NCBI RefSeq assembly: GCF_030013205.1
Contig: NZ_CP122648.1
Direction: 5' to 3' (one strand)
DNA: 64,000 nucleotides
Source of the DNA: Escherichia coli
Lineage (GTDB): Bacteria; Pseudomonadota; Gammaproteobacteria; Enterobacterales; Enterobacteriaceae
Shown here: positions 37,783 through 63,036 of the stretch, in pieces
How the letters are laid out: every line of letters begins with the position of its first letter
How positions within the stretch are numbered: position 1 is the stretch's first letter
Notes under the pieces: generated by a model
What the model saw: the letters and a program-made list of their open reading frames with translations, nothing else
Databases searched by the model: none
What the model was told of the DNA's origin: nothing
Made by a program: the position numbers and the translations under genes

Positions 37783-37821
37783 TGGTCGTGATTTTTTGGT
37801 GAAAAAAGAGAGGTGGTAAAA

Positions 37822-38400: not shown

Positions 38401-38464
38401 AAAACGTGCTGATTTCAGCCCTGCCGGATTTGGCGGGGCTTATTGATTATAACCGGGTGACATT

Positions 38465-41866: not shown

Positions 41867-41917
41867 TTTAAATACACGCGCTTTCCGGCGCATTAATACA
41901 GTCTGAGGGGAAGTGTC

Positions 41918-42445: not shown

Positions 42446-42450
42446 CCTCA

Positions 42451-42732: not shown

Positions 42733-42739
42733 GTAAACC

Positions 42740-42919
42740 ATGACCATCACCGAAGCCGATTTGCTGGAGATGATCCGCAGCATTGCCGGAATCAAACAAC
42801 CAGCAAGCAAAATTAACAGGTGTTCAGCGCCTGTTTCCGTTGTGCTGCAGCAGGAACGCCACCAGCATGATGATGTGAGGCCGTATCAGTGGCGGAAACC
42901 GGACAGGCCGCGACGGTGA
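42740..42919 (+). CDS. possible small ORF (59 aa)
   Basis: Unlisted ORF MTITEADLLEMIRSIAGIKQPASKINRC.. It starts just after the repeat field. No motif and only a weak RBS, so it may be a gene remnant. Confidence 0.25.
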   Translation: MTITEADLLEMIRSIAGIKQPASKINRCSAPVSVVLQQERHQHDDVRPYQWRKPDRPRR

Positions 42920-43211
42920 GCGGAACGTTCGGTAAGGCTACAGCCAAGCCAAACATTAAGCCTACGGGTAACCCTTCGAAGGGGCTTTAAAGGGGAGATG
43001 ATTATCCTTACCAGTTGATAAACAAGCAAACCTCAAATTTGAGGTTTGTATCTGCCTGACTTATTTTTGTGCTAAGTTGTTGATATATCCGACGACACAA
43101 ATTTGCGTTCTGTGGCTGGTGGTGGCGAGTTACGACCGATCATTTCCTTCCTGGCAGGTTACATCCTGCTGCTCAACTACTACGGTAGCCACTACGATTA
43201 ACTACGCGATG

Positions 43212-43240
43212 CCGATATGGGGATTCCCATATCGGTTTAT
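43212..43240 (+). terminator. intrinsic terminator
   Basis: Perfect 10-bp stem CCGATATGGG/CCCATATCGG with loop GATT, followed by TTTAT. Confidence 0.6.
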
Positions 43241-43306
43241 CCGTGATCATCCACCAGCTTGATCACGGTTAACAGGGGATGTGTAATCCCCAAGCGAGTG
43301 ATAAAT

Positions 43307-43336
43307 GTGTATAGAAATGTGTATAGAATTTATTTT
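43307..43336 (+). repeat. arm-type repeat GTGTATAGAAATGTGTATAGAATTTATTTT (partner of 29271-29307)
   Basis: See the partner feature. It lies 50 bp left of the second att core. Confidence 0.6.
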
Positions 43337-43385
43337 AGAACTCGCGAATGCGCCTTTATTACTGGCCTTGTGGCTTGTTGTATTG

Positions 43386-43403
43386 TTCCCTTCGCCCGCT
43401 CCA
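43386..43403 (+). repeat. att core copy 2: TTCCCTTCGCCCGCTCCA (18-bp direct repeat of the glyU 3' end)
   Basis: Exact match to 29138-29155. Confidence 0.9.
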
Positions 43404-43900
43404 GAATCTCCCCAGGTGGAGAAGACTAAAAAAGTCTTCTCTGTCAGCAACTTAAACAGTTACCTATTTAATTTGCTTAGGAGTTCTACCATTGTGATCC
43501 GCCCTTAGTAACTGTCACGTTAAGTTACTCGGTGAGATGACAGTATAACCTAACGTTGGCGGCAGTTGCACCTCTCACACCGCGATAGCACAACGTGAAG
43601 ATAAAGCCCATCCTGGCATTGTAATGTCATCGACAGACTGAACACACGCATTTAAGCCCGATGTGCGGCCTTGTGGCTGCGTAAACAGGTTTATGGTGAT
43701 ATTGGTCCTTGCAAACCATATGCAAGCTCTATCAGCGTTTCAGCCACGCTCCCAACGGGTACACGGTTATCCTGATAAGGTGTGATCTTTCTGACAATCT
43801 GATGAAGTCGCTACGCTCCCGCTTGTTGCTGTATCACCAACGGGGCTTTATGGTTTCTATTGTCTATAATAATCTCACAATTCCCCTGCATGAGGTTGAT

Positions 43901-44107
43901 ATGACTGTTAGCTACAAGATTACTTATGAGCATAGAGACGGTGATCAAATTAGAATGGAAGAGGTTTTATTCCATTCAGAGCATGAACCAACAAAAGATG
44001 AAATTCATGATGCAGTAAGAAAAGATACTGTGAGATTTAATTCTCCATCTAATGGAGTAACGGCTGTTTCAGGGTTTAAAGTGATTTCGGTTGTCCCTGT
44101 TCCATGA
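43901..44107 (+). CDS. hypothetical protein (68 aa)
   Basis: The internal ATG of ORF 43709..44107 is preceded by GAGG (tgaggttgatATG). Product begins MTVSYKITYEHRDGDQIRMEE... Confidence 0.45.
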   Translation: MTVSYKITYEHRDGDQIRMEEVLFHSEHEPTKDEIHDAVRKDTVRFNSPSNGVTAVSGFKVISVVPVP

Positions 44108-44140
44108 ATGGTTATAGAAGGGGCTGGAAGCCCCTAATTA

Positions 44141-44461
44141 TTACTTCTTAATATCGCCAGTGCATTGATATTCGATAGTCACAAGTGTTTGCATACAACC
44201 AGATGAAGAAGGTTGTGAACATTGAGAAGTGAATCCACCAAAAGGCTCGGCTCCTGAATATCCCCAAGCGGCACAACGCGCTTTGGCTGCATTCATGCCT
44301 TGTTGTGGATCTACAACAGGACTTTCAAACATACCGTAAGAATAACTCATCCTAACTGTGCCGTCTGATTTGCTTCCACCAGTTGGAACGAGTTGTTTTT
44401 TTGTTGCACATCCAGAAATAATCAATGTTGAAGCAAGTAACAGCATTAAACTTTTGCGCAT
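44141..44461 (-). CDS. small lipoprotein (YecR-like by recollection)
   Basis: 106 aa. The signal peptide and lipobox read MRKSLMLLLASTLIISGC. The mature part contains four Cys. Confidence 0.65.
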   Translation of the reverse strand: MRKSLMLLLASTLIISGCATKKQLVPTGGSKSDGTVRMSYSYGMFESPVVDPQQGMNAAKARCAAWGYSGAEPFGGFTSQCSQPSSSGCMQTLVTIEYQCTGDIKK

Positions 44462-44605
44462 GTAAATAATCCCAAGAGATAATGGTTATGTATTGATTTA
44501 AAGCGTTTTTAGATTAATGCATTAACTTAGCAAAATTAAGTCTTTTCTGATTGTTTGCAGAGTAAAAATGAGTTGCTTTCGAAATTATTTCGGATGTTTA
44601 TTGTA

Positions 44606-44773
44606 TTACGGTTTTTCAAACCGTCTAACTATTGTCGCTATTGAATGGGCAATAATAGCAAGAGGATTCATTTCGTCATTGGAGGCAACAAAAAGTCGGT
44701 AACTGATAGCTACAACGAATGAAACAATAACGAGAAAGCGGATAGTGCTAAGATGTTTTGAAGATAAATGCAT
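44606..44773 (-). CDS. possible 55-aa hydrophobic peptide
   Basis: Unlisted ORF MHLSSKHLSTIRFLVIVSFVVAISYRLFVASNDEMNPLAIIAHSIATIVRRFEKP. No clear RBS. Confidence 0.25.
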   Translation of the reverse strand: MHLSSKHLSTIRFLVIVSFVVAISYRLFVASNDEMNPLAIIAHSIATIVRRFEKP

Positions 44774-45113
44774 AACGCCCCCTAAATGAATGTGAGGGGG
44801 ATTAAATCATGCAAATTTGTTGTGTGCAATACTGGTAATTTATCCTAATAGTCTACTATTCACCTCAATCTACGTCAACCAATATTTGATGTAGATTTGA
44901 TTTTCTTTTAAAAACAATATGTTGCAATTTGTTGGGTTTTGGGGTTAGGTTGTTTTTTGGACGTTTCCATCAAGTGTAAAGATACGTTTAGCCTTCATAG
45001 TGAGTTCAGTTACTGTCTTTTTCTCTGAAATCGGCGCATACGTGATCATCGCTTAACGAGAAGATCAGCGCCGTCAGGTCCATGCAGCGACAATTCTGAA
45101 ATATCAGGAGGCA

Positions 45114-45665
45114 TTACGCTTCCTGCTCTTTCTTGATACGTTGCACCGTCTGTGTGCTGACACTGAAATCTTTTGCTACGCTCCGAATTGATCCACCATT
45201 CGCGAGAGCGGCAACAATTCCCGCTCGATCAATTGCTTTTCCATTACCACGTTTTGCTATACGCCCAGCTGCCTTAGCTGCGGCGATCCCTTCACGTTGA
45301 CGCTCAAGCATCATTTCACGTTCCATTTGTGCCACTGCTGCAAGCACTGTGAGCATCATATTCCCTGCGGGAGAGTTCTTCCCTGTCTTAAAGTCTTCTT
45401 TATGGAAATGCACAGACACGCCGCGCTCTGTTAATTGCTCAACCGTTGCCAGAAGGTCGGCTGTATTACGGCAAAGGCGATCAATACTGTGAACATGCAA
45501 AACATCACCTTCCCGCACATAGTTCATCATTGCCTCAAACTGTGGGCGCTGGGTATTCTTGCCTGACGCTTTATCTTCAAAGACTTTATCAAGAGCTACT
45601 CCAGCTAATTGACGGTCTGTGTTTTGTTGCACAGTCGATACCCTAATGTATCCAATATTAGCCAT
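45114..45665 (-). CDS. serine recombinase (resolvase/invertase family)
   Basis: 183 aa. The N-terminus MANIGYIRVSTVQQNTDRQ contains the catalytic Ser. It also has the DRLCRN motif and a C-terminal HTH (GGSIRSVAKDFSVSTQTVQRI). Confidence 0.9.
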   Translation of the reverse strand: MANIGYIRVSTVQQNTDRQLAGVALDKVFEDKASGKNTQRPQFEAMMNYVREGDVLHVHSIDRLCRNTADLLATVEQLTERGVSVHFHKEDFKTGKNSPAGNMMLTVLAAVAQMEREMMLERQREGIAAAKAAGRIAKRGNGKAIDRAGIVAALANGGSIRSVAKDFSVSTQTVQRIKKEQEA

Positions 45666-45680
45666 TTTCTTTATTCCTTC

Positions 45681-45798
45681 TGTGTTGATTTGTGTGTAGT
45701 GATTATTGATCGTGTTGATTAGGTGTGTAAAGGACTTTTTTCACTACGAAATTCGAAGGTTTTTAGTGTGGTGATTTAGCCTGCTTTATCACTACACG
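45681..45798. promoter_or_regulatory. res-like nested imperfect inverted repeats upstream of the recombinase gene
   Basis: TGTGTAGTGAT (45693-703) pairs with ATCACTACACG (45788-98). TCACTACGAA (45741-50) pairs with TAGTGTGGTGA (45765-75). There are also direct repeats TGTGTTGATT / CGTGTTGATT. Confidence 0.45.
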
Positions 45799-46166
45799 TC
45801 TTGCATGAGAATCATGTAGTTACGTTTTGGTAAAATTAGCAAGCTATTAAATAGTGTGTTTATTTTGAAAAAATAATTTTTTGTTGCATTAAAGAAAACT
45901 TGTTCGACAAATAATAGATTGATTTTTAATCAATAATTTCTGATAGTGCTCTGTAAGCCGCATTACACAAGGCTTTGCGAAAGTGATGTAAAAGTGAAGA
46001 AAGTAAGAATTGCACTTTTAAGCTACTTTTCATTGAATTTTTAGTATGGAATTACACAGGGATTAATCATCAATTACATTGAATTTAAGCCTGTTTTAGA
46101 TGTTTAATTTTGGTAGCAAGAAACACTTTTAGAAGATCATTGCACAGATGTTATGTGATAAATGGA

Positions 46167-46325
46167 TGTAACGATGGGTTACATTCAGCTATCTGAAATA
46201 CTCTCTGTAAGAAATTTGGTAGTAACGATTCGTTACATAGACTAATTATTGAATGTAACGATATTACACATCGGTAGTAACGATACGTTACATCGGCAGA
46301 TGATTGGTTGTAACGAAAGGTTACA
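46167..46325. repeat. array of five phased 17-bp palindromes (T/A)GTAACGA-N3-(G/C)GTTACA
   Basis: Boxes: TGTAACGATGGGTTACA (46167-83), AGTAACGATTCGTTACA (46221-37), TGTAACGATATTACACA (46254-70), AGTAACGATACGTTACA (46276-92) and TGTAACGAAAGGTTACA (46309-25). Centre spacings are 54, 33, 22 and 33 bp. The T-type and A-type boxes alternate. Confidence 0.8.
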
Positions 46326-46414
46326 CAATAAGACTAACATCTATAATACTAATAATAAAACTAACTATTAAACTATATAATATAATTCTTTTTTATCTTT
46401 ATAAGAATAATTAT

Positions 46415-46775
46415 AGGGATACCCGTTAGGGAGTCTAACGACTATCCCTTAATCTATTGGCATTCGCCAGAACCTTGCACAAGTTAGAGTGTTAGTCGTT
46501 AGACTGCTTGTCATAACACATAGTTTTTGTTTGTTGATGTTAGTTAGTAGATCTATGTTCGCTTTCCGCTCACAACGAATATGTAATCTACTATGTGCAA
46601 ATAGCCTACGGCTTGCGTAAGGCTAAATAGTCTTGCGCTGTGCGCAGAACGATAATTAACTAACTACCATCTAACGATCATCAATCATCTAAAATAAATT
46701 TCTTGTGCAATGTTCTTGCGAATGCAATTAGGGTAGCGTTACCCCTTTGGGGATGCTAACGCATAACTATAGATC
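46415..46775. repeat. pair of ~75-bp imperfect inverted repeats flanking a ~200-bp segment
   Basis: The left arm (46415-46492) ends in ..TTGGCATTCGCCAGAACCTTGCACAAG. The right arm (46700-46775) has a reverse complement ending in ..ATTGCATTCGCAAGAACATTGCACAAG. Each arm also contains an internal GTTAG/CTAAC-type hairpin. Confidence 0.7.
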
Positions 46776-47206
46776 AACCATCAAACAGACAAAAAAGAAA
46801 AATATGGTTTAAAGATGTTAGGTAGTAGATGAGTTTCTACCGCTTAAATCAAGCCGTAGGCGAGCTAAACGTATATAAGGTAGGGAAACACTTAGCGGTA
46901 ATAGATTAGCTCGTTATAGAGATTCTGAGGAGCTTTACAGGTATTTTATAAGGTGTCTGAAATTAGATTTTATCTACCATCACCTTTTCATATACCTAAC
47001 AAATACAAAATAAGCACCTTAAATAAGCCTCTGGCGAGCTAAACGGTCATTACATAAGGGAATGTATTGTTTTTATCAAAACCTCGTTAGAACGCGTTTT
47101 AGAGCGTTATTAGACAATAATGAAGAATAGCACTACACAGGAGAGCACGAATTGCTAAGACAAATTATAAATTGCTGAAATAGATCGGATTTTTTGCAAA
47201 ATGGTA

Positions 47207-47235
47207 TTGACAAATGTCTCTTTCTGTGCAATAAT
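47207..47235 (+). promoter_or_regulatory. sigma70 promoter P1 (TTGACA-17-AATAAT with TGc extended -10)
   Basis: TTGACA at 47207-12, a 17-nt spacer ending in TGC, and AATAAT at 47230-35. It reads toward the 47358 operon. Confidence 0.65.
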
Positions 47236-47287
47236 AGGTATTAGAGGGACAGAAAACATTCTTATCCTCTAAGTAATTAAACCAATG

Positions 47288-47331
47288 CACCGCACTTTGA
47301 GCCGTCAGGCTGCAAGGTGTCTTTTTCTTTT
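47288..47331 (+). terminator. leader terminator/attenuator between P1 and the first gene
   Basis: CACCGCA..GCCgtcaGGC..TGCAAGGTG composite stem followed by TCTTTTTCTTTT. It lies 26 nt before the ATG at 47358. Confidence 0.5.
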
Positions 47332-47357
47332 AACCAAATAGAATAGGAGGTTAATTA

Positions 47358-47540
47358 ATGAAATATTTCACTCCACAGGATGTAGTAGAAGCCTGGAAAC
47401 GTGGTGAGATCAATCGTTTTAAAGTAAGGATGAACAGGAACACAGCGCGACGCTGTGGTTATCCAGAGCGTGAAAAATGTTTTGACGATGCACTAAAAAT
47501 TATTGATGAACTGCGTAAGGCAGAAGTAGAGAAAGAATAA
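47358..47540 (+). CDS. hypothetical protein (60 aa)
   Basis: Strong RBS (AGGAGGttaattaATG). No motif. Confidence 0.6.
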   Translation: MKYFTPQDVVEAWKRGEINRFKVRMNRNTARRCGYPEREKCFDDALKIIDELRKAEVEKE

Positions 47541-47561
47541 TAACAGGAGAAGGAGAAAACT

Positions 47562-47729
47562 ATGAGCGAAACTAAGAAACCAATTCCGCGCACTTACCTA
47601 CACGTTGACCCTGAAATCTTCAAGGTTTTATTTGCTGAAGCCAAGAAAAGGCAAATTATGGTCAGTGATTTGATGTTAGAAATCATTACTGAAGCAGCAG
47701 AGAACATCAAACAAAAAAAGGGTAAGTGA
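47562..47729 (+). CDS. ribbon-helix-helix (CopG-like) protein, 55 aa
   Basis: Unlisted ORF MSETKKPIPRTYLHVDPEIFKVLFAEAKKRQIMVSDLMLEIITEAAENIKQKKGK with RBS GGAGAAGGAG. It shows a beta-strand then helix-helix pattern. Confidence 0.6.
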   Translation: MSETKKPIPRTYLHVDPEIFKVLFAEAKKRQIMVSDLMLEIITEAAENIKQKKGK

Positions 47730-47782
47730 TCCTCATTCACTTTAGTAGCGCATTAAGCGTGATTTATAAGGAGATAATTCTA

Positions 47783-48463
47783 ATGTCTAAAATTAAATTG
47801 ATTCGTGAAAAATACCAGTATGTTGATAAACAAACAGGAGAAATTAAAGACAGAACTTTGAATATACCACACTACTTTTGTGAGATTGAATTCATCTACT
47901 CCTCAAATATTGAGGATGGAAAAGCGAAGTTTAGTGCAGAAATGCAAAAATTATATTGCTATGTTTCAGATTGGGAGAAATCAGGGGGGATATGTTTTGA
48001 AACACAAACGAAGTTAAGTAAAGTTTGTGGCTGTAGCCGTAAGACAGTTAATGAATTGATTGGTCTTATGATTAAAATCGGTCTTTTAGAAGAGGTCGGA
48101 GAACGAATCCCAAAACGTCCTTTAAAATTACGTGCGCTACTTCTCACAGATGCACATATTACTCCCCCTGGAGAATCATCACTACCTGATCCTTCTGAGA
48201 AAGAAGACGAATCTAATGAAATATTGAATGTTTCCGAAATCATCCTTGAAGAAGAAACACAAGAGCCAGAGTTCCCTGAGCGGCCCGAAATTTTTACTTG
48301 GCTTCTTTCCCTTGATAAGAAGAAACCACCGCACGAAGAAACAGAAGATTTTGTAAAACGTGCATTAGATTCAAAGAATATCTATCTTGAGAAACAGGCT
48401 TTTCACGATCTGATAATATCTCTAAGAGAAAAAAGTGAAATATACGATTCAATACCATTCTAA
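47783..48463 (+). CDS. winged-HTH protein (226 aa), candidate replication initiator/regulator with acidic C-terminal half
   Basis: The internal ATG of ORF 47726..48463 follows AAGGAG. The HTH-like segment is TQTKLSKVCGCSRKTVNELIGLMIKIGLLEE. Confidence 0.5.
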   Translation: MSKIKLIREKYQYVDKQTGEIKDRTLNIPHYFCEIEFIYSSNIEDGKAKFSAEMQKLYCYVSDWEKSGGICFETQTKLSKVCGCSRKTVNELIGLMIKIGLLEEVGERIPKRPLKLRALLLTDAHITPPGESSLPDPSEKEDESNEILNVSEIILEEETQEPEFPERPEIFTWLLSLDKKKPPHEETEDFVKRALDSKNIYLEKQAFHDLIISLREKSEIYDSIPF

Positions 48464-48472
48464 GGAGAATAA

Positions 48473-48742
48473 ATGACTTATAACATCACTATAGGAAACA
48501 AAACTATTGAAATAACTGAAAGCGGATACAACATTTTAAAAGCTATTTTGGAAATAGAGTTCTCACCGCCGACAGTGGTTAGCTTTTGTAGTTTAGGCGG
48601 CTACAGCGCACAACACGTGAATCATTGGTTAAACCATTTTACATCGTTCGGTGTGCTGGATTATGAAGGGATTAACAGCACTACATTTCGTCTTTTGAAA
48701 TTAAACAAAGATTTTGAATTGTTTATCACAAACAATCAATAA
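48473..48742 (+). CDS. hypothetical protein (89 aa), possible wHTH
   Basis: RBS AAGGAG upstream. No firm motif. Confidence 0.5.
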   Translation: MTYNITIGNKTIEITESGYNILKAILEIEFSPPTVVSFCSLGGYSAQHVNHWLNHFTSFGVLDYEGINSTTFRLLKLNKDFELFITNNQ

Positions 48743-48838
48743 CAACAGATCGGGCAATACATATGGCAAATGCATTTATGGCGATATTCATTGTAACAAT
48801 GGTATCAAGTTTTTATAATCCACATAAAAAGAGGGAAA

Positions 48839-49222
48839 ATGGGAAGAAAGAAAAAGAACAACTTAAAACGTATTGAAAAAAACAGTAACTTCAATTCAAC
48901 AAGACAACGTCCACCGACACACACCAATAACGAAATTCCAGGGGAAGAGATAATATTTATTCTTGAAACAGAATCCCCTGAATTAAGCGATGAAGAATTA
49001 GAAATAATCCAGTCAATGCCAGGCGTTTACTTTCGCCCAAGAACAAGAAAACAAACTATCATTTCTGATGGCACTCTGAAACGTTGGCAGCTTTTAGGGT
49101 TTAGCTCCTATCATCATTTTTTGGGATTTAACGCTTTCAATAATTGTGTAGGTGGTGCATCGGAAGTCGATCTGATGGCTCATTTAGAAGATACATTAGC
49201 TTCTAACAAACGTTCTAACTAA
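48839..49222 (+). CDS. hypothetical basic/acidic protein (127 aa)
   Basis: RBS GAGGGAAA upstream. The N-terminus is Lys/Arg-rich. Confidence 0.5.
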   Translation: MGRKKKNNLKRIEKNSNFNSTRQRPPTHTNNEIPGEEIIFILETESPELSDEELEIIQSMPGVYFRPRTRKQTIISDGTLKRWQLLGFSSYHHFLGFNAFNNCVGGASEVDLMAHLEDTLASNKRSN

Positions 49223-49237
49223 TAAAATGATGGGAGT

Positions 49238-49510
49238 ATGTATAAGCGCCCAATGAAAATAATCGAAAAAGGAAAAATAATGATTAACTATCAACTATTA
49301 GAAACAACATTTTTTAAAGAAGCAAAACAACTTGCAGAAGTGTTTATTTCACTGGCTGAACGAGCAAAAGAAGAAAATGATTTTGCCTTGCTTGATGATG
49401 TGCTGGATGACATTGCAACCTATCGTATACCGCTACAGATTGCACTAAACAAGGCTAAACAGATTCAGCAAGAGATGGAATCAGCAGATCAAGGAGAGAT
49501 TGCACAATGA
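49238..49510 (+). CDS. hypothetical helical protein (start uncertain: 49238, 49253 or 49280)
   Basis: ORF in the track. Its stop overlaps the next start (ATGA). Confidence 0.45.
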   Translation: MYKRPMKIIEKGKIMINYQLLETTFFKEAKQLAEVFISLAERAKEENDFALLDDVLDDIATYRIPLQIALNKAKQIQQEMESADQGEIAQ

Positions 49511-49815
49511 CAGACAACATTCTGGAAGTTATGGACACTCTTTCGGATCGGATGATCGCCCTACAGACACGTATCAATCAAGCCTATTCAGATTTATGCG
49601 ATTACACGCTCTCTCAATGCGTTAGTAGCTTAATGAAGGTGAATGTAAGCCTTGACGATTTCATCTCTCTGGTGAGCGATTTAGAGCTATCTAAGGACGA
49701 TGTCAGGCTGTGTACTCAAACCATCACAGACACCGCCAGCACGTTAAAGGCTGCAAGTGAAGAGATTCAGCAATTAGTAGATGATTTAGCAAAAAGTGCT
49801 ATTTTCTCCAAATGA
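49507..49815 (+). CDS. hypothetical helical protein (102 aa)
   Basis: Translationally coupled to the previous ORF. Confidence 0.5.
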   Translation: MTDNILEVMDTLSDRMIALQTRINQAYSDLCDYTLSQCVSSLMKVNVSLDDFISLVSDLELSKDDVRLCTQTITDTASTLKAASEEIQQLVDDLAKSAIFSK

Positions 49816-49828
49816 TAATGAAAATCAT

Positions 49829-49857
49829 TTGCATTTATAACGATTTCATTATATAAT
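49829..49857 (+). promoter_or_regulatory. near-consensus sigma70 promoter P2 (TTGCAT-17-TATAAT)
   Basis: TTGCAT at 49829-34, a 17-nt spacer, and TATAAT at 49852-57. The initial transcribed sequence ATTAGGGGTAGATAAAAA resembles that of P1 (ATTAGAGGGACAGAAAA). Confidence 0.7.
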
Positions 49858-50087
49858 GATATTAGGGGTAGATAAAAAGGTTTTGACTGGTGTTAATCCT
49901 TCTACTGTCATAAATCCCTGCATATGGAAGGTGATAGCCTCAAGGGTTGAGTGGCATTAACCTCTAACAAATATTACCTTCCATCTCTCAAGAAGTTTTA
50001 GAATAATCATAACTCCCTCTTTGATTGTTGATTGTTTCTACGTTGTGTTGATGAATGTTGTTAGGCATTGTGCTTAATTTTGATAAA

Positions 50088-50130
50088 AGCGGGTAGGTGT
50101 TATCTCCTTGCCCTTCCCGCTCTTATTTTT
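50088..50130 (+). terminator. candidate intrinsic terminator ~265 nt downstream of P2
   Basis: AGCGGG (50088-93) pairs with CCCGCT (50116-21), with an inner AGG/CCT pairing. It is followed by CTTATTTTT. Confidence 0.45.
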
Positions 50131-50559
50131 CATCTATGCTTATCCTAAAGCTCCTTATTTTGTCCGAAAACATTAAAGAGCCTTACACTGATAGTTATAT
50201 TTTATAACTATTTACTAACATCATTAAACTCTTATTTAATGACAGAAGTTAGTAACAGAATAATCTATTAAGTTGTTGTCAAAAAACTATCATCTGCATA
50301 GCGTTAGCCGCAAGTAGAGAGAGTTTAGTTAAGAATGGTGCAATAAACTTTGGAAATATTGATAGCAAAACTAGTTTTATAGAATGCGGATCTATAATCT
50401 TTGGTTGTAAAAACGATTTTCTGAAACGGTAGATTACTGTTGGTGTAGTTAATCCTTATTAAAAATTTAATCTGTGAGTAGATTGGAATAGTGATTCCTT
50501 AAAATCTGACTGGTGCATCCACACCATGAAAGATAGCAGTTGGCCACCGCGCCCCGAAT

Positions 50560-50615
50560 AGATATTCCTGATTGATTCCGCATGTTTTCCTAAGAGCATG
50601 TTTTCAGGAATATCT
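50560..50615 (+). repeat. perfect 12-bp inverted repeat with 32-nt spacer
   Basis: AGATATTCCTGA (50560-71) and TCAGGAATATCT (50604-15). Confidence 0.8.
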
Positions 50616-50719
50616 GTTCACCCTTTAAACCTATCTTTAAGCATGTTTAATAAGCATTCTTAGAGATACGTTTAAAACCTCCTCAAGGTTTTACTTATCG
50701 CTGTGTATTGCCCGACACG

Positions 50720-50779
50720 TTAATAAATCCCCCTCGCTATTGTCAGATTGAACCTCTTATAGCCTGGGGGATTTATTAA
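50720..50779 (+). repeat. perfect 14-bp inverted repeat with 32-nt spacer
   Basis: TTAATAAATCCCCC (50720-33) and GGGGGATTTATTAA (50766-79). It lies 29 nt before the ATG at 50808. Confidence 0.8.
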
Positions 50780-50807
50780 ATTCCAGCATAATGGAATCGT
50801 TATATAA

Positions 50808-51017
50808 ATGAAACAAGAAATTATCCTGAAATATGGCAATGAAAAGTTAACACTAACTGAAGATGTGTTGAATGCTACAGCCTACGCGCTTGGCATCACT
50901 CCCACAGAATTAAAGAAACAGTGTGAACGTCTTTATAAGGCTGAAAGCAATAAACCATCTCACCAAGATTTGATTAATGCTAAAGCTCAACAAATCAAAC
51001 AATCTAAGGAAAAATAA
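50808..51017 (+). CDS. hypothetical protein (69 aa)
   Basis: First ORF after the long leader. Its stop overlaps the next start (TAATG). Confidence 0.55.
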   Translation: MKQEIILKYGNEKLTLTEDVLNATAYALGITPTELKKQCERLYKAESNKPSHQDLINAKAQQIKQSKEK

Positions 51018-51391
51018 TGGCTATTTTAAAATTAAGCGATGTTTTCCCACATCGTAAAAGCATCACTGACGTAGTGAGCTATGCAACCGACCCTTACGCG
51101 GCTGTAGAAAGCAAAAAATTTGCAGCACTTGCACAAGATGTAACGTGCGGCGACCTCATTGATTCATCCGGCGCTAAATATGTTAGCGGCGCTGATGTTC
51201 TTGTCGTTGTGTCTGACTTCGTAACTGCTGATTCAAATAAAACAGTTAACGTGCTTCGTGCTAATGCCGGACTCGTTTGCATCAAAGCTGATGCCCTGAA
51301 TGCCGAAGGCGCTGTAAAAGAAGCTGCTATTGCAGCTCTCGCTGCTAAAGGCTTCCAGCTTGAAGGCTTCCACTCTGTTTTCACATCTTAA
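51017..51391 (+). CDS. head-decoration-like protein (124 aa)
   Basis: Its size, Ala/Val-rich beta-type composition and position immediately upstream of the capsid-like gene resemble lambda gpD-type decoration proteins. Confidence 0.4.
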   Translation: MAILKLSDVFPHRKSITDVVSYATDPYAAVESKKFAALAQDVTCGDLIDSSGAKYVSGADVLVVVSDFVTADSNKTVNVLRANAGLVCIKADALNAEGAVKEAAIAALAAKGFQLEGFHSVFTS

Positions 51392-51407
51392 GAAGGAATA
51401 AATAATA

Positions 51408-52436
51408 ATGATTATCGGAAATGAAGTGGTTGATCTTGCTCCACTGTTCGAATTAAACGACTCACGCAATTACCTACTGTCTACTCTGGATTTTACTGAT
51501 CCTGTGCCTGTAGAAAGTCACAAAGTGGCTGTTTCCCAGCTTATCGAGAGCAATGAATCTCTGTTCAACCATCCTACAAGCCGTTTTAGCTCTGAGCATA
51601 ACGTTACTAAGCGTGAGAACGGGGAAGAATGGCTGATTGAAATCCCTTACTTCCTGCGTGAAGACCTGATCAAACCGCAGGACGTGCAAGGCAAACGCAA
51701 AGCCGGAAGCTCTATTGAAGAAACACTGCCGGATCTGTATGCGGAATATATCGCTACACACAATGTTGCATTCCAGCGCACTAAAGAAAGCATCCTCGCG
51801 GCTTCTCTGTTCTCTGGCAAGACACATACCCCGAAAACTGACGATGTTCTGATCGACTACAGCACTCTGTTCGGTGTGTCTCCAATGACTGCAACCGTTG
51901 ACGCATCCAGCACCAACACAATGACCGTATTCAAGCAATTTGATCAGATGCATACGGATATGATTGCTAAGGCACAAAGCCAGGCTGCAACCATTGAGCG
52001 TGTTGTTGTGTTCTGTAAACCTGCGGCATTCAACGCTATTCGTTACAGCGTTGGCATGGTTAATGCGTTCCAGTATGCAAGCCCTGTAGACGATGCAAAC
52101 GTGGTGTTTAATGTGCGTTCTCTGCTGCCTGGTGTAACTACTTTCACCATTCCAGGAACTAACATTGACCTGATCAAAGTGACTGATCCGCTGCTGCTGG
52201 CACATATGACCGCTGACGCTGTAGCTATTCCTAAACTTGCTAAGGGGGCAGGTGTTTACCAAGCTATTTTTGGTGCGCCTTCCAGTTCATTCGATCTGCT
52301 GTCTCAAGGCGCTAAAGAGTATTACAGCTATGCTTTCGAATCGAATCGCGGCGACGCAGTGCACGTAGTGACCGAGAATAGCTCGCTTGTGGTTAACCAC
52401 GGTGTTGGCTTCTCTGTGCAGATCACAGTAGCGTAA
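51408..52436 (+). CDS. major capsid protein-like (gpE-like size class, 342 aa)
   Basis: 342 aa, which is my recollection of the lambda gpE length class. It follows the decoration-like gene, has a strong RBS (AAGGAAtaaataataATG) and codon usage suggesting high expression. The family is not verifiable here. Confidence 0.45.
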   Translation: MIIGNEVVDLAPLFELNDSRNYLLSTLDFTDPVPVESHKVAVSQLIESNESLFNHPTSRFSSEHNVTKRENGEEWLIEIPYFLREDLIKPQDVQGKRKAGSSIEETLPDLYAEYIATHNVAFQRTKESILAASLFSGKTHTPKTDDVLIDYSTLFGVSPMTATVDASSTNTMTVFKQFDQMHTDMIAKAQSQAATIERVVVFCKPAAFNAIRYSVGMVNAFQYASPVDDANVVFNVRSLLPGVTTFTIPGTNIDLIKVTDPLLLAHMTADAVAIPKLAKGAGVYQAIFGAPSSSFDLLSQGAKEYYSYAFESNRGDAVHVVTENSSLVVNHGVGFSVQITVA

Positions 52437-52590
52437 AAAGTGTTAAAGACGTTCCCCTACGTCTGGAAATAATCGGGGCAATAAGGGTAAGGGATAATCA
52501 TATAAGCAAAATATGCGCTGTCTCTTGCACTTTTTGTTTTTCTACTGTCTACAAACCCAAATAAAAATATATATATGTGAGAGAAAACCA

Positions 52591-52788
52591 ATGAATACAG
52601 AAAATTCACAGGCATTAATTCTTAAATCTGTAAAAGAACTGGCAGCTATTAGCGATGACTCAATAATCAATGTCAGTGCCTTATGCAGAATGCTTTCAAT
52701 TGATGCAAATAATGTGCGGCAGCGTGTGTTTCAGACTGGATGCAGCACTTTTGAAGCAATTACATACTACTGTTCTAAAAAACAATAA
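52591..52788 (+). CDS. hypothetical small protein (65 aa)
   Basis: Internal ATG of ORF 52513..52788 with GAGAG upstream. The segment VSALCRMLSIDANNVRQRV is HTH-like. Confidence 0.45.
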   Translation: MNTENSQALILKSVKELAAISDDSIINVSALCRMLSIDANNVRQRVFQTGCSTFEAITYYCSKKQ

Positions 52789-52822
52789 TAAACAACAATC
52801 ATAATACAGGGAAACAATTAAC

Positions 52823-54646
52823 ATGTTAGAGCTAAACATCAGCCGCTTGTCAAACGTTGTCACCTTCGAAGTTAACCGACCATCATTAGAGAAAGCAAAA
52901 GCAGAAGTAGAAAAACTTCGTAAACAAATGGCGGCGGTGAAAGATATAGAATTGCGTGTTAAGACACATAAACAATCAACCGCTAGAGCAAAAAAAGACG
53001 TAGACGATATTGCTAAAAAGCAAGCACAGGCTGATAAAGCTAATGCTAAAGCACAATTAGCCGCTCAACGTGTAGTTGCAAGAGAACAAAAAGCCCTGGC
53101 AGCACGCAAAGAGAAGGCAGAATTAAAGCTTTTAGACGTTGGATCAAGCATTAGTGCAATGCACCGTCTTTCTGTAGCGGAACAATATAAAGCTATTGCA
53201 CAGGCTAGAGAAATTGCCCTCCAATATGAAAGAGGCGCTATTAGTCTGGCACGTATGAATAGCCAAATGAAACGCCTACAACAGCAACAACGTAAGATTA
53301 ATGGCAATCGTAACGCTCACGCTAAAGCCTATGCACCTGTTAAGGGTAGCGGGAGTATTGGCGGCGGTGCTGCGGCTGTTATGCTGGGTGGCTTAGGCGC
53401 TGGCGCTACGTATATGGCTATGAGCAAAGCCTCTGAATTTATGGCTAATAGCTTTGCGAATGCTGAAACAGAAGGGGAATTAATCCAACGTGCAAGGCTT
53501 GGTGGAGTTGATTACAACTTACTTAATAATCTTGAGCGTTGGGCTTACGATAACGGGATCGATAGCCTCCAGGGTGATCAGGGACGCAGAAAAATACTAG
53601 ATGCCATCGGTAAAGATGTGCGTGAACGTGCAACCAAATCTTATGACGAGGCTGAATATGTAGTCGATAAGAAAACAGGGAAAGGCGAATGGAAGGGCGG
53701 CGATAGCGGCATCAATACTTTAATGAATGAAGGATTCCTAACTAAAAAGGATCTAAAAGACTTTGCTGATAATCCGGCTGGTCTGGTTAGTAAAGCAGTT
53801 CAGGGAATGGTAGCTAAAGGCTATTCAGATGCACAAATCGGTAGTCGTCTGGAAGATCTGGCTGATGATTTGATGCTCACCTCTAAATACTGGACACGCT
53901 CCGCTAAAGAAGTGGAACAATCAGCACGAGAACAACGAGAATCAGGGCGCTGGGTAACGCAGGCACAACAGGAAAGCGTTATTAAATTCCGTGAACTGAA
54001 TAATGCACTTAGTGGGCTTTCTGACTCACAAGGGATCGCCTTTGTTGATGGCTTTATGAAATCTCTTGATCCGAAAGTGATTGAAGAGTTTAAAAAGAGC
54101 ATGGTTGCAATGCTGCCAATGTTTACCAAATTAGGCGAGGCTATCGGCGGATTGGTTAACGCTGTAATGAAAGCAATCAACTGGCTGATGAAAAACGACG
54201 AGAAGACGGCAGCTATTCAGAAGAATTTAGGTGATGCACCGCCACTATCTAACGAAGGAATGAAGCAGAATCTTTCTAATCTCACTCCTGATCAATATAA
54301 AGGCGCTGGCACCGGAACAACTAAGCCAGATAACAGCAATTCCCTGGTTAACACTATTAAAAGCTGGTTTATGCCAGAAGAAACGGTAGGTGGGGCGCAG
54401 GCTGTAAATCAATACAGTCTCGAAGGACAAAACATTGCAAATCTGAAACAGAGTGCAGCACAACAAGCTTTCAAGGCTCCTTCTTACACCTTTGCACCTG
54501 TTATTAACTTCAATCCAGAATTACAAGTAAATGCAGAAGTGCCGCTAACTATCGAATCAGACACCGGACGATTGAGCGAATTTATCGACTTCAAATCAAA
54601 GGCATCTTCCGCTGAGTTTAGCAAGCTATTTAGACTGGCCCCCTGA
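52823..54646 (+). pseudogene. tape-measure-like protein, 3' end displaced by IS2 (native ORF = 52823-54630 + 55967-56003)
   Basis: 607-aa ORF. It has a long coiled-coil N-terminus and a Gly-rich hydrophobic segment (GSIGGGAAAVMLGGLGAGATYMAM). The last 4 codons and the stop come from the IS2 end. Removing IS2 and one CTATT copy restores ..SKLLTLGVMSGGSTY*. Confidence 0.55.
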
Positions 54647-54721
54647 ATCTCCAGACAACCAATATCACTTAAATAAGTGATAGTCTTAATACTAGTTTTT
54701 AGACTAGTCATTGGAGAGCAG

Positions 54722-55087
54722 ATGATTGATGTCTTAGGACCGGAGAAACGCAGACGGCGTACTACACAGGAAAAGATCGCTATTGTTCAGCAGAGTTTTG
54801 AACCGGGAATGACGGTCTCCCTTGTTGCCCGGCAACACGGTGTGGCAGCCAGCCAGTTATTTCTCTGGCGCAAGCAATACCAGGAGGGAAGTCTTACTGC
54901 TGTGGCCGCAGGAGAGCAGGTCGTTCCTGCCTCTGAACTTGCTGCTGCCATGAAGCAGATTAAAGAACTCCAGCGCCTGCTCGGCAAAAAAACGATGGAA
55001 AATGAACTCCTTAAAGAAGCCGTTGAATACGGGCGTGCAAAAAAGTGGATAGCGCACGCGCCCTTATTGCCCGGGGATGGGGAGTAA
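54722..55087 (+). CDS. insC: IS2 transposase OrfA
   Basis: [41 protein letters not shown].., recognised as IS2 InsC. Confidence 0.95.
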
Positions 55088-55950
55088 GCTTAGTCAGCCG
55101 TTGTCTCCGGGTGTCGCGTGCGCAGTTGCACGTCATTCTCAGACGAACCGATGACTGGAAAGATGGTCGCCGCAGCCGTCACTCAGATGATACGGATGTG
55201 CTTCTCCGTATACACCATGTTATCGGAGAGCTGCCCACGTATGGTTATCGTCGGGTATGGGCGCTGCTTCGCAGACAGGCCGAACTTGATGGTATGCCTG
55301 CGATCAATGCCAAACGTGTTTACCGGATCATGCGCCAGAATGCGCTGTTGCTTGAGCGAAAAACCGCTGTACCGCCATCGAAACGGGCACATACTGGCAA
55401 AGTGGCCGTGAAAGAAAGCAATCAACGATGGTGCTCTGACGGGTTCGAGTTCCGCTGTGATAACGGAGAAAAACTGCGAGTCACGTTCGCGCTGGACTGC
55501 TGTGACCGTGAGGCACTGCACTGGGCAGTCACTACGGGCGGCTTCGACAGTGAAACAGTACAGGACGTAATGCTGGGAGCGGTGGAACGCCGCTTCGGCA
55601 ACGAGCTTCCGGCGTCTCCAGTAGAGTGGCTGACGGATAATGGTTCATGCTACCGGGCTAATGAAACACGGCAGTTTGCCCGGATGTTGGGGCTTGAACC
55701 GAAGAACACGGCGGTGCGGAGTCCGGAGAGTAACGGCATAGCAGAGAGCTTCGTGAAAACGATAAAGCGTGACTACATCAGTATCATGCCTAAACCAGAC
55801 GGGTTAACGGCAGCAAAGAACCTTGCAGAGGCGTTCGAGCATTATAACGAATGGCATCCGCATAGTGCACTGGGTTATCGCTCGCCACGGGAATATCTGC
55901 GGCAGCAGGCCAGTAATGGGTTAAGTGATAACAGGTGTCTGGAAATATAG
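55045..55950 (+). CDS. insD: IS2 transposase OrfB (expressed with OrfA by -1 frameshift)
   Basis: 301-aa ORF, an integrase-core DDE protein recognised as IS2 InsD. Confidence 0.95.
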
Positions 55951-56050
55951 GGGCAAATCCACTATTAACGCTGGGTGTTATGTCAGGCGGGTCAACCTAT
56001 TAATCATCACTGTGGGGCGGTTTAGCCCCCTTAAATAAGGATTACAAATT

Positions 56051-56728
56051 ATGGCAATGGGTCCGTTAACCATTGGTCGCCCGACTGAGGCGAAAATCAA
56101 CAGCACAAGCAACGATAGCAACGGTAGAACAACCAAAGGGGGTAACGGCTTTGCGATCATTACCTCTAATCTCGGCAGTGGTGCAAATGCTGCTTACAAT
56201 GACTACCAGGCATTATCATTTGATAGCGTGGAATCGACGAAAGTTAGCAGAAATGCGGACGTTACAAGCTATGCCGTCGAATCAGGATCAGAAGTTAGTG
56301 ATCATGTTCAAATACGGAATAACAAGTTCACATTACAAGGGCGTATCTCTGAAACCGTATTGAAGCTCAATCCCGATATGATTAAGAATGCGGGAATTAA
56401 CGGCAATCGACGTATGCTTATGCTTGAATACCTAAATCAGTTGATGGACAGTCGCCAACCTTTCCTACTTGTCACTGAGTTAAAAAATTATGACAACGTT
56501 GTGTTAGTTGGCATGTCTTACGAAGAAGAAGCAAGCGAAAGCCTATTGTTTACTCTTGATTTTGAGCAAATCCGTCTTGTCTCTAAAGCAACTACAAGCG
56601 CAATTGCGGTAAAAACAGCACCAAATAAATCTGTAGGAGGTCAGGTTAAAATGCAGGTAAATACAACAGAACAGAAAAATCAAAAAAGCCCAGGGCAAGA
56701 CGTTGTAACGCCAGTATTTAAACAATAG
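56051..56728 (+). CDS. hypothetical phage-structural-like protein (225 aa) downstream of the tape-measure-like gene
   Basis: ORF in the track with a beta-rich composition. The function is inferred only from its position after the tape-measure-like gene. Confidence 0.4.
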   Translation: MAMGPLTIGRPTEAKINSTSNDSNGRTTKGGNGFAIITSNLGSGANAAYNDYQALSFDSVESTKVSRNADVTSYAVESGSEVSDHVQIRNNKFTLQGRISETVLKLNPDMIKNAGINGNRRMLMLEYLNQLMDSRQPFLLVTELKNYDNVVLVGMSYEEEASESLLFTLDFEQIRLVSKATTSAIAVKTAPNKSVGGQVKMQVNTTEQKNQKSPGQDVVTPVFKQ

Positions 56729-56769
56729 CCTTAAACACCTATGAAACGCTCTATAACGAGATAATCATA

Positions 56770-56805
56770 AAAGAGGCATCAATCTATATTGAAGCCTCTT
56801 TATTA
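56770..56805. terminator. bidirectional hairpin between the convergent 225-aa gene and integrase
   Basis: AAGAGGCATCAA tctata TTGAAGCCTCTT followed by TATT. Confidence 0.55.
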
Positions 56806-56821
56806 CGTCTATGGCGTTGTT

Positions 56822-58042
56822 TTACGCCTTAAAATCAATATTTAATTCATATCTTACTAATTCTACATATTCAGCTAATTCTGGAATGCTTGCCCCTTGT
56901 GAGTAGGTGCGAAAGGCTTCTGTTTTGGCTTTTTGCTCAGTGTGGCCCGTAATACTGCCGATCCTGGTCTCGCTAACTCCGGCACGATCAAGACAAGTGA
57001 TAAACATCCCGCGCAAGCTGTGAAAGCATTGTCTATCTGTAGCGATTGGCAAGACGCTACGACGTAAACGTGAGAATGCTTGAGAATAGAACGGGCCTTT
57101 CTTGCCGTCGATTCTTTTTACTTTGTTCGAGTGAGGGAACAAATATTCACCATAATTATGATTTAAATATTCATCGACAATAATCGATAGTCTCGAATGT
57201 ATCGGAACGTGTCTGATCCCTGCTTTAGTCTTACTCTTGCTGATATAAAAACAGCGTATTCCTTCCACAGTTACAACCTCTGACTTTTTCAGGCTTGCCA
57301 GTTCGTCTAATCTGCATCCTGAAAACAAGCCCATTAAAATAATATTTCTGATCTCCGGCTCCGCTGCATCAAGTAGCTTTTGCATTTGTTCAGGTGTAAA
57401 CGGTTGATAACTCTCGATTGTGCGACGTGCTTCGAGGTTATGACCGTGAAAAGGGTTACTGTCTGGTATTCCGTCATAACGGCGTTTAGCAAATTCATAG
57501 AGCGATCCTAAGCATGTAAGCCAGTTTTGACGAGATTGATCGGCTGCTCCTCGTTGCTTCTGGTCATCTAAGAATACTGTTACAAGCCGTCTGCCTATTT
57601 TCTCAATATGAATATCATCTTTCTGAATGCTTTGTAAAAATAGCTCAACGGCCCTTGCTGATTTCTGTAGTGTTGAGTATGAACGACGCTCTCTGTAGCA
57701 TTCGGCGTATTCGTCACGTATTAAGCATAGGGAAGGCGATGCATAACCGCGTTTTACGGCTCTTTGCGTGTTTTTATTGGCCCTTGCCTCTGAATGTAAG
57801 AATTCAATAGCTTTTTGTAACCTCCTTTCGGGGTTATCAGGATTATGTTTCCGCTTTAGTTCCTCCCATTCTAATAACAGATGGTTTCTGAATCTTCTCG
57901 CCTCATTCAGATCTCGTGTAGATGTGCTTTTTCTCCACAACTTGTAAGGGTAAAGATGGCGTAAGTATTTAGGAACAAAAATCTGAAACATCCAGATCCC
58001 ATCTTTTCTCTTAAATAAGTATGCTTGGCTCTTGATCGACAC
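56822..58042 (-). CDS. int: tyrosine recombinase/integrase of Island 2 (406 aa)
   Basis: Catalytic signature present: GCRLDEL (Arg), HSLRGMF (His-x-x-Arg), ITGH, RTYSQG (Tyr). It starts 86 bp from att core copy 3 and reads into the island. Confidence 0.85.
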   Translation of the reverse strand: MSIKSQAYLFKRKDGIWMFQIFVPKYLRHLYPYKLWRKSTSTRDLNEARRFRNHLLLEWEELKRKHNPDNPERRLQKAIEFLHSEARANKNTQRAVKRGYASPSLCLIRDEYAECYRERRSYSTLQKSARAVELFLQSIQKDDIHIEKIGRRLVTVFLDDQKQRGAADQSRQNWLTCLGSLYEFAKRRYDGIPDSNPFHGHNLEARRTIESYQPFTPEQMQKLLDAAEPEIRNIILMGLFSGCRLDELASLKKSEVVTVEGIRCFYISKSKTKAGIRHVPIHSRLSIIVDEYLNHNYGEYLFPHSNKVKRIDGKKGPFYSQAFSRLRRSVLPIATDRQCFHSLRGMFITCLDRAGVSETRIGSITGHTEQKAKTEAFRTYSQGASIPELAEYVELVRYELNIDFKA

Positions 58043-58127
58043 GATAATGATCCTCTATTATCACGTAATCAGTTACCTATGATTGATCACAAAATCTTTA
58101 TTTTACAGCAGGTTATTATGGGTTTCC

Positions 58128-58149
58128 TCGATTCCCTTCGCCCGCTCCA
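58128..58149 (+). repeat. att core copy 3: TCGATTCCCTTCGCCCGCTCCA (22-bp direct repeat of the glyU 3' end)
   Basis: Exact match to 29134-29155. It is preceded by GGGTTTCC, a degenerate continuation of the T-arm. Confidence 0.9.
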
Positions 58150-58381
58150 ATTTATCTTCACCTCATCAACCTGCCATTTTTGTTGTATCTGATTTTCTAT
58201 ATTATCTTAATTCAATCGCTTCAGACTTTTCGCAATCGCCGTAATACTTCCCCATTTTTTTGTAAATAAAAGCGTTTACGCAATGCAATCCATTTGTAAC
58301 AACCCAGGTAAAATACCTTATTTTCAAGTTGTTAAATAAGTGGTTATCTACGCTTTTAACAAACGATTGATGGAATCTTTT

Positions 58382-63032: not shown

Positions 63033-63036
63033 TGAA

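Follow-up and report, generated by a model that had tools for sequence, protein, structure and literature searches.

Candidate satellites of Stephanstirmvirinae in Escherichia coli and related Enterobacterales encode their own capsid protein and tail-core proteins

All PLEs of Vibrio cholerae encode a tape measure protein (TMP), a tail chaperone and a baseplate hub that are 19-41% identical to those of ICP1, PLE11 virions hold the PLE tail proteins in place of the ICP1 ones, and deletion of the PLE tmp gene cuts transduction by 96-99.9%; predicted tmp genes have also been noted in other satellites (bioRxiv 10.1101/2025.01.29.635557). The cf-PICIs encode, besides a major capsid protein (MCP), a portal, protease, head-tail adaptor, connector and terminase subunits and are defined as being without tail genes, which SatelliteFinder lists as 'forbidden components' for PICIs and cf-PICIs alike (PMC10085698). 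A third precedent is provided by the EPIPs, 11-kb satellites of Mycolicibacterium that encode both an MCP and a TMP and for which smaller capsids were observed by electron microscopy (PMC12822802). Here we analyzed a 64,000-nucleotide (nt) stretch of Escherichia coli DNA from contig NZ_CP122648.1 (hereafter the window), in which an integrative island at 43404-58149 spans ~13 kb once an inserted IS2 is set aside and belongs to no described satellite family. We modestly favor the view that this island represents a family of satellites of the Stephanstirmvirinae, the group of phi92 and phAPEC8, that would build a small capsid of their own and chimeric tails.

In phi92 the relevant genes run gp122 (scaffold), gp123, gp124, ten head-tail, sheath, tube and chaperone genes, gp134 and gp135. 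Its 2026 structure by cryo-electron microscopy identifies gp124 as the T=13 MCP, gp123 as a trimeric beta-tulip cement protein, gp134 as the trimeric TMP and gp135 as the hexameric tube initiator (PMC13450770). The island has counterparts of exactly gp123, gp124, gp134 and gp135, and keeps them in the phi92 order. The gp124 counterpart (51408-52436, + strand) is an MCP with the HK97 fold of the lambda gpE family (PF03864, E 1e-17) that aligns end to end with gp124 at 25% identity. The TMP gene (52823-54646, +; phrog_16051, E 1e-26) encodes a homologue of gp134, where the intact allele of 613 amino acids (aa) aligns from N- to C-terminus with the 659 aa of gp134 at 26% identity. A Dit-like tail tube initiator (56051-56728, +; PF21821 Dit_like, E 1e-27) is 50% identical to gp135 and matches the solved gp135 chain with an E of 7e-54.

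Inspection of 50,697 phage genomes by tblastn leads to the same phages. The top MCP matches, at ~25% identity, are Phapecoctavirus-type E. coli phages and related 142-149-kb Klebsiella phages, with weaker matches reaching Pseudomonas and other myoviruses, and the TMP (~30%) and Dit-like protein (~53%) match the same Phapecoctavirus and Justusliebigvirus phages. Only 134-140 of the 50,697 records contain a TMP homologue, and Stephanstirmvirinae lead these matches whether the query is the TMP of an E. coli, a Klebsiella or a Serratia element. That is to say, the nearest phage relatives of the MCP, TMP and tube initiator all belong to this group of 150-kb virulent myoviruses, and it is for this reason that we propose the group as helpers. 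Five records named 'Campylobacter phage' (MG065639, MG065645, MG065650, MG065656 and MG065689; 146-151 kb) give TMP scores equal to those of E. coli Phapecoctavirus and phi92-like phages; their host label looks doubtful.

The remaining counterpart, a 124-aa protein encoded at 51017-51391 (+) with the position and size of gp123, is a probable capsid cement or decoration protein. Its AlphaFold model is moderate (pLDDT 62), and its best fold matches in PDB and BFVD are the 123-124-aa accessory capsid chains of Sf14 and Bas63, as well as a 'head decoration protein' (Foldseek E ~0.2, probability 0.5). BLASTP and hhalign comparisons with gp123 were not significant, a shared C-terminal VFTS aside. 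A preliminary description, made from the letters of the DNA, had seen here a gpD-like/gpE-like pair followed by a tape-measure-like gene and one more structural-like gene. The capsid reading of 51017-52436 holds for its larger part, where 51408-52436 encodes the HK97-fold MCP, and the two downstream genes prove to be the TMP and the tube initiator; the gpD-like member of the pair stands on weak fold matches and synteny.

The element resembles the PLEs in several respects. Both are chromosomal islands with their own replicon, and both have a large virulent myovirus as helper, as demonstrated for PLEs and as the genes of the element suggest. Both encode a TMP and a baseplate-core protein that are distant from those of the helper (19-41% identity for PLEs, 25-78% for the elements; 26% and 50% for the present copy against phi92), and PLE tail proteins replace those of the phage in chimeric contractile tails. 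In contrast, PLEs combine the MCP of the helper with the PLE scaffold TcaP where the element encodes an MCP and a probable cement protein of its own, and they carry a tail chaperone and hub where the element carries a tube initiator. The hosts also differ (Vibrio cholerae, with ICP1 as helper, versus Enterobacterales), and the proteins of the two systems were compared by description only. PLEs use a large serine recombinase as integrase and a RepA_N initiator; the element has a tyrosine integrase and a winged helix-turn-helix (wHTH) Rep.

Like a cf-PICI, the element is a small integrative enterobacterial island that would form the shell from its own MCP and take the rest of the virion from a helper. 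It differs in encoding none of the other cf-PICI head genes, in having tail genes, and in an MCP of the gpE family PF03864. SatelliteFinder would reject the element family on account of those tail genes. PICIs in general are recognized by an integrase, an AlpA/Stl-type regulator, pri-rep and a small terminase and are free of capsid-shell and tail genes; here no element ORF matches TerS, AlpA or a primase, and the MCP, TMP and tube initiator are present. EPIPs resemble the element in size (11-14 kb), in encoding both MCP and TMP, and in missing most tail genes and a holin; they differ in having a serine integrase, small terminase, adaptor, stopper and scaffold, in a helper that is a temperate siphovirus prophage, which EPIPs induce, and in their actinobacterial hosts. 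P4 is similar in size (11.6 kb), host, tRNA integration through a tyrosine integrase and possession of its own replicon. Unlike the element, P4 encodes no MCP or tail protein and has temperate P2 as its helper, and searches of Pfam, PHROGs and NCBIfam with the element ORFs turned up no Psu/Delta/Sid, alpha primase, epsilon or cox-type family.

The island is nevertheless satellite-like in the generic sense of a small mobile element with its own integration and replication functions and an incomplete virion gene set. We found no description of the element family, or of any satellite of Stephanstirmvirinae, in a literature search that included RefSeq protein accessions and did not extend to subscription literature. 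The suggestion that the locus does not fit the P4, PICI, cf-PICI or PLE layouts was thus sound as to membership in any of them. It went too far as to novelty: we regard this as a new family and not a new kind, because satellites with their own TMP and baseplate parts have already been demonstrated (PLE) and reported (EPIPs).

Capsid and tail genes of the elements have had different histories. The element MCPs form one clade, with 36-74% identity among its members and 18-24% to phage MCPs; for the MCP of this island the closest phage proteins lie at 18-26%. Tube initiators depart from this pattern: in three elements (L025, L027 and L029) they share 75-78% identity with phi92 gp135 and only ~50% with those of E. 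coli elements. The former value exceeds the 72% between the tube initiators of phi92 and phiWec188, which points to recent exchange with Stephanstirmvirinae. The TMP of a Klebsiella element is likewise closer to phage TMPs (39-42%) than to those of other elements (26-31%). Judged from these alignments, tail-core genes have been exchanged repeatedly between elements and Stephanstirmvirinae. Such exchange would be expected if the tail proteins have to fit the hubs and tubes of the helper and a shell protein has to fit only itself. We take it as the strongest in silico sign of a continuing relationship with these phages, and the idea of a satellite gains from so specific a link.

A different helper could produce part of this picture. 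The elements might serve an unsampled phage, for example a temperate relative of Stephanstirmvirinae, such that the likeness to phi92 and phAPEC8 reflects shared ancestry. The low MCP identity to known phages (18-26%), TMP identities that mostly lie at 25-42%, and an integrated lifestyle with sigma-70-type control, which is typical of satellites of temperate phages, would all suit such a helper. However, tube initiators that are closer to gp135 than phiWec188's is to phi92's point to recent exchange, and no other phage group leads the TMP matches in the 50,697 records. We consider a helper outside the known group distinctly unlikely.

The island is one member of a family found in ~12 Enterobacterales genera. 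Of 5426 complete E. coli genomes, 392 (~7%) have the MCP gene, in up to three copies each, and all 432 copies are chromosomal. A Klebsiella pneumoniae member, also at glyU, has an integrase 81% and an MCP 56% identical to those of the island, and a Serratia member has an MCP 39% identical; further members come from Enterobacter, Citrobacter, Kluyvera, Buttiauxella, Scandinavium, Cronobacter, Dryocola and Pluralibacter. The shared layout begins with a recombinase (- strand), ~1.5 kb without ORFs, small ORFs, Rep, more small ORFs and a spacer, and continues with a small ORF, a 120-aa ORF, the MCP, a small ORF, the TMP, usually the tube initiator, and the integrase (-). All 14 elements with identifiable attachment (att) pairs have a unit length of 12.3-13.9 kb. 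A 9.4-kb contig labeled 'MAG: Bacillota bacterium' (L093, JAEWTL010000083.1) encodes an MCP 97% identical to that of an E. coli element and is most likely a mis-binned Enterobacteriaceae contig.

Four att sites are used, and integrases are swapped among them. Besides glyU, the elements of other E. coli occupy thrW, with an integrase only 33% identical. A third site is a split LysR-family gene, taken to be argP, beside a methylmalonyl-CoA mutase cluster, with the element inside it and bounded by a 52-bp direct repeat. The fourth is seen in a metagenome contig (L159, OKVJ01000576.1), where a 37-nt direct repeat at 85-121 and 13924-13960, which resembles another tRNA 3' end (…GGTTCGAGTCCGGCCTTCG), bounds a unit of 13,839 bp. 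In the Klebsiella pneumoniae glyU element L006, the cargo includes a Dam-family methylase and a tyrosine recombinase of 205 aa fills the slot of the E. coli serine recombinase (features at 4394-5083 and 2968-3585); a tube initiator gene is absent.

These relatives bear on whether the island is simply a cryptic remnant of some undescribed temperate myovirus that was reduced by deletion, either passive or still mobile with nonfunctional structural genes. Most virion genes are indeed absent, IMG/VR lists such regions only within provirus predictions, and the present copy bears an IS2. However, the same minimal gene set and order are kept across genera from 100% down to 39% MCP identity, the ORFs are intact, and dN/dS ratios of 0.07-0.12 for the MCP, 0.05 for the tube initiator and 0.18-0.24 for the TMP (0.05-0.24 overall) place the virion genes under purifying selection. 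Every MCP relative above 36% identity sits in such a minimal element, the next being phage MCPs at no more than 29%, and no fuller parent prophage was found in 5.8 billion proteins, IMG/VR, or genome and metagenome contigs. The elements also exchange their integrase and Rep modules, as active mobile elements do. Taken together, the conserved minimal set, the selection on its genes and the lack of a fuller parent rule out recent decay of a known prophage, and we rejected the defective-prophage explanation on these grounds; an older remnant of the kind described we rate as very improbable. Two further findings that might have undone the preliminary description, full-length homology to a known prophage family and the absence of the same bounded unit elsewhere, did not materialize: the closest phage MCPs are no more than 26% identical, and the att-bounded unit recurs in many genomes.

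The same survey did not bear out a phage-plasmid-like character. The MCP gene occurs in none of 72,556 plasmid records (PLSDB), all 432 copies in E. coli lie on the chromosome, and circular contigs were not recovered; with no plasmid form found and an incomplete virion gene set, we rejected a phage-plasmid class. Element-sized Logan and metagenome contigs were considered as excised circles and rejected, as they end at assembly breaks that lie at the att repeats or just beyond them and show no terminal overlap.

On the satellite reading, infection by a helper phage would relieve transcription termination in the element, which would then excise and replicate. The element MCP and cement protein would form a small capsid (~T=4 for 12-14 kb) on the portal, scaffold and protease of the helper, and the helper terminase would package the element. 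The element TMP and tube initiator would displace those of the helper in otherwise helper-made contractile tails, akin to PLE with ICP1, and helper yield would probably be lowered.

Several observations weigh against this scheme. No small terminase, pac or cos site was identified in the element, and at the DNA level the element resembles neither the phi92 terminal repeat nor any phage. An MCP that is only ~25% identical to that of the helper would need to work with the helper's portal, scaffold and protease, a compatibility problem that cf-PICIs avoid by encoding their own portal and protease. The TMP is only ~7% shorter than that of phi92, and redirection of tail length offers no obvious benefit. 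The tube initiator is absent from the Klebsiella and Serratia members, the cement assignment is weak, and no circular or virome-type element contig or plasmid form was found in IMG/VR, Logan and metagenome contigs, or the 72,556 plasmids.

The main rival dispenses with particles altogether. In this account the island is a mobile anti-phage decoy that amplifies upon infection, overproduces divergent MCP, TMP and tube initiator that would be built into the capsids and tails of phi92/phAPEC8-type phages and poison them, and spreads by other routes. Its virion genes are homologous to the very parts from which the head shell and tail core nucleate, no genes or sites for packaging were found, and recurrent capture of helper tail alleles fits a decoy that needs compatibility with its target. 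Interference with tail assembly is, moreover, known in PICIs (PMC11364771) and in PLE11. In contrast, a tight length of 12.3-13.9 kb over four att sites and several genera is expected of a packaged genome, a constraint that a decoy would not be under, and a co-conserved MCP and cement pair in its own long-diverged clade suits a self-assembling shell better than a poison subunit. PADLOC defence models matched none of ten proteins scanned, all of them from the early region and the cargo. Known satellites do both, and the decoy and satellite readings can both hold; a decoy without particles we judge unlikely.

Beyond the structural operon, the gene content is that of a mobile replicon. The tyrosine integrase (56822-58042, -; PF00589 with a DUF6538 N-terminus) lies at the attR end, and a small serine recombinase of resolvase/invertase type (45114-45665, -; 183 aa; PF00239, E 6e-39) lies toward the other; both had been recognized beforehand, the latter together with a res-like region that corresponds to a cluster of GTGTAGTGAT sites. 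The early region continues with two small ORFs of 60 and 55 aa (47358-47729, +), a Rep-like wHTH initiator (47783-48463, +; weak matches to PF13730 and phrog_270), and four small ORFs of 89, 127, 76 and 102 aa (48473-49815, +). The 127-aa ORF is a core gene of the family, and the predicted structure of its product (pLDDT 54) is unusable. A 69-aa ORF (50808-51017, +) opens the structural operon, and a 65-aa ORF (52591-52788, +) lies upstream of the TMP gene. These eight small ORFs of 55-127 aa have no family match even at E <= 5. The ribbon-helix-helix (RHH) and HTH calls made earlier for small ORFs likewise find no Pfam match at that threshold; the RHH assignments are without profile support, that for the 55-aa ORF having been read from sequence pattern.

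In Pfam, PHROGs and NCBIfam, none of the element ORFs finds a counterpart among terminase, portal, protease, connector, sheath, tube, fibre or lysis families, in line with the absences of terminase, portal, protease, tail tube and lysis genes listed at the outset. When the other element proteins were compared with phi92 (1-50 kb and 55-82 kb) and phiWec188, no match was obtained besides a generic one of 29% between the serine recombinase and the phi92 invertase.

Two long stretches, 45666-47357 and 49816-50807, contain no ORF of at least 50 aa, which agrees with the ORF-free, repeat-rich regions reported earlier. The ordered repeats are also real, and comprise the GTAACGAnnnGTTAC array, the GTGTAGTGAT cluster and a strongly folded segment at 50545-50810. 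The first stretch can be read as an origin and regulatory leader, and the second is specific to one E. coli lineage; the general label of structured non-coding DNA thus covers two different things. Rfam gave no match at E <= 1.

Directly upstream of the serine recombinase, a res-like cluster of three GTGTAGTGAT sites occupies 45694-45797, where the motif has 9 matches window-wide versus 2.45 expected. In Klebsiella and Serratia members a short tyrosine recombinase occupies the slot of the serine recombinase. This swap and the three adjacent sites together suggest a function of the multimer-resolution type. A putative origin follows at 46157-46416, where 4-5 palindromic iterons GTAACGAnnnGTTAC (46157-46325) precede an AT-rich stretch. 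Members with a Rep at least 90% identical share the GTAACGAnnnGTTAC array, an argP-type element with a Rep ~36% identical has five ACAGAATTCTGT repeats in its place, and a Klebsiella element has two different arrays of four repeats each at 32-bp spacing. The repeat sequence therefore tracks the Rep allele, as expected of origin iterons.

Further downstream, the block 46932-47340 is 86% identical to that of two argP-type elements (L008 and L017) whose MCP is 73% identical, and shows no reading-frame signal. It contains an early promoter, TTGACA-17-TGcAATAAT (47207-47235, +; 11/12 match), whose position is kept in all family members inspected. The near-consensus promoters described for the ORF-free DNA are in general no more frequent than expected (25 promoter-like sites versus 35.5), and it is this conserved site that survives from that observation. 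The promoter leads into a leader of ~100 nt (47241-47340, +) with a 5' hairpin and an intrinsic-terminator hairpin at 47292-47320 with its T-run, such that a ~55-nt hairpin-bearing segment is followed by the terminator hairpin just ahead of the first early ORF. In the terminator hairpin, identity stays at 94-97% even where the MCP is only ~59% identical, with compensatory changes in 2 of 8 stem pairs and none broken; Serratia has a different terminator. The arrangement of promoter, leader and terminator ahead of the early operon was present in every member checked.

P4 immunity works via transcription termination in a leader RNA. The conserved leader-terminator of the element recalls this mode of control, a likeness that does not imply action of the element leader RNA in trans. 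The leader may be an attenuator or a small RNA, and the early operon may be controlled by termination and read-through or by that small RNA. A fuller reading would combine these features with the structural genes: widespread, unrecognized satellites of these virulent 150-kb myoviruses, with a self-encoded minimal shell of MCP and cement protein put together on the portal, scaffold and protease of the helper, a chimeric tail core of TMP and tube initiator repeatedly taken up anew from helpers, and control by an RNA leader-terminator with no repressor protein. We put this combined reading forward tentatively, as a real possibility that falls somewhat short of probable.

The second stretch, an ORF-free spacer at 49816-50807 ahead of the structural operon, is found only in this E. 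coli lineage and shows no similarity to sampled members of other lineages. At either end lies one arm of a 21-23-nt inverted repeat, CATTTATA(TA)ACGATT(T/C)CATTAT, at 49829-49860 and 50785-50813. A 10/12 promoter-like site at 49828-57 coincides in part with one arm, and the start codon of the ORF that opens the structural operon with the other; the TAACGATT core resembles an origin iteron half-site, and the two arms are possibly an operator pair. The 266 nt at 50545-50810 fold into three consecutive long hairpins (z = -9.97; minimum free energy -88.6 versus -46.1 kcal/mol for shuffles). Hairpins with trailing T-runs were also seen by eye between the early and structural operons in argP-type E. 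coli, Klebsiella and Serratia elements.

Because inverted repeats flank the spacer and a Hin-sized serine recombinase is present, an invertible promoter switch of the Hin/Gin type was suspected. A query in which the spacer was artificially inverted between short coding flanks was searched against 5426 E. coli genomes, and none of the 281 matching genomes held the inverted form end to end, on which basis the switch was rejected. Mimicry of a helper pac site or terminal repeat was rejected as well, both non-coding regions being unlike any of the 50,697 phage genomes or the phi92 terminal repeat.

The present copy differs from its relatives by an IS2 (54631-55961, +; 1331 bp) with a CTATT target duplication. 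The same island without IS2 is found in 11 near-identical sibling genomes; IS2-free carriers include ETEC1748, K_EC180 and strain 74-2. The insertion sits between the TMP and tube initiator genes and replaces the last 13 codons of the former. Since it removes the TMP C-terminus, which in phi92 is resolved within the baseplate, and parts the TMP gene from the tube initiator gene, this copy is probably impaired for the tail step.

The window matches, with 100% identity, the chromosome of the pig isolate E. coli ETEC4079. The chromosomal setting is a tRNA-Gly(CCC) gene, glyU, at 29082-29155. A 23-nt repeat of the glyU 3' end occurs in identical copies at 29134-29156 and 58128-58150, the latter being attR, and a partial copy with an identical 18-nt core, TTCCCTTCGCCCGCTCCA, forms attL at 43382-43404; the placement of the element between glyU 3'-end repeats, as first proposed, is thereby borne out. 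From the three copies it follows that two islands lie in tandem at glyU, the studied element being the distal one. Just inside attL, a variable cargo stretch (43850-44461) holds an 85-aa hypothetical ORF (+) and a YecR-like lipoprotein gene (44141-44461, -), and is missing in the thrW and argP variants.

The proximal island (29157-43381) adjoins glyU and is a separate satellite-like element, such that two different satellite-type islands are stacked at a single tRNA. The PGAP annotation of the source genome gives it its own tyrosine integrase, an AntA/AntB antirepressor, an Icd-like protein and a DNA primase family protein, together with ProQ/FinO, PerC, NUDIX, a DUF2213 protein and a 679-aa hypothetical protein. 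Nothing about the flanks is unusual for this E. coli locus. In the RefSeq annotation, an xdhA pseudogene with an internal stop lies upstream (27404-27835), and the ETT2 type III secretion cluster lies downstream (61329-64000), with frameshifted genes farther along.

The element family stands out for its prevalence, for the relevance of its putative helpers to therapy, and for its unusual minimal set of MCP, TMP and tube initiator. The rule that excludes tail genes from PICIs and cf-PICIs may be a blind spot of detection that hides families such as this one. If the satellite reading is correct, ~7% of complete E. coli genomes, plus relatives in Klebsiella, Enterobacter, Citrobacter and Serratia, harbor a parasite dedicated to Stephanstirmvirinae, a phage group much used in therapy and biocontrol (phi92, phAPEC8, ESCO5). 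The parasite would probably inhibit its helper too, and would then affect host-range prediction and therapy outcomes. The family would also be the first enterobacterial counterpart of PLE-ICP1, a satellite of a virulent phage, in a tractable host, and would join in one element two strategies of piracy that are otherwise known separately. Finally, it would offer a natural experiment on assembly compatibility, where capsid genes evolve independently and tail-core genes are repeatedly exchanged with the helper.

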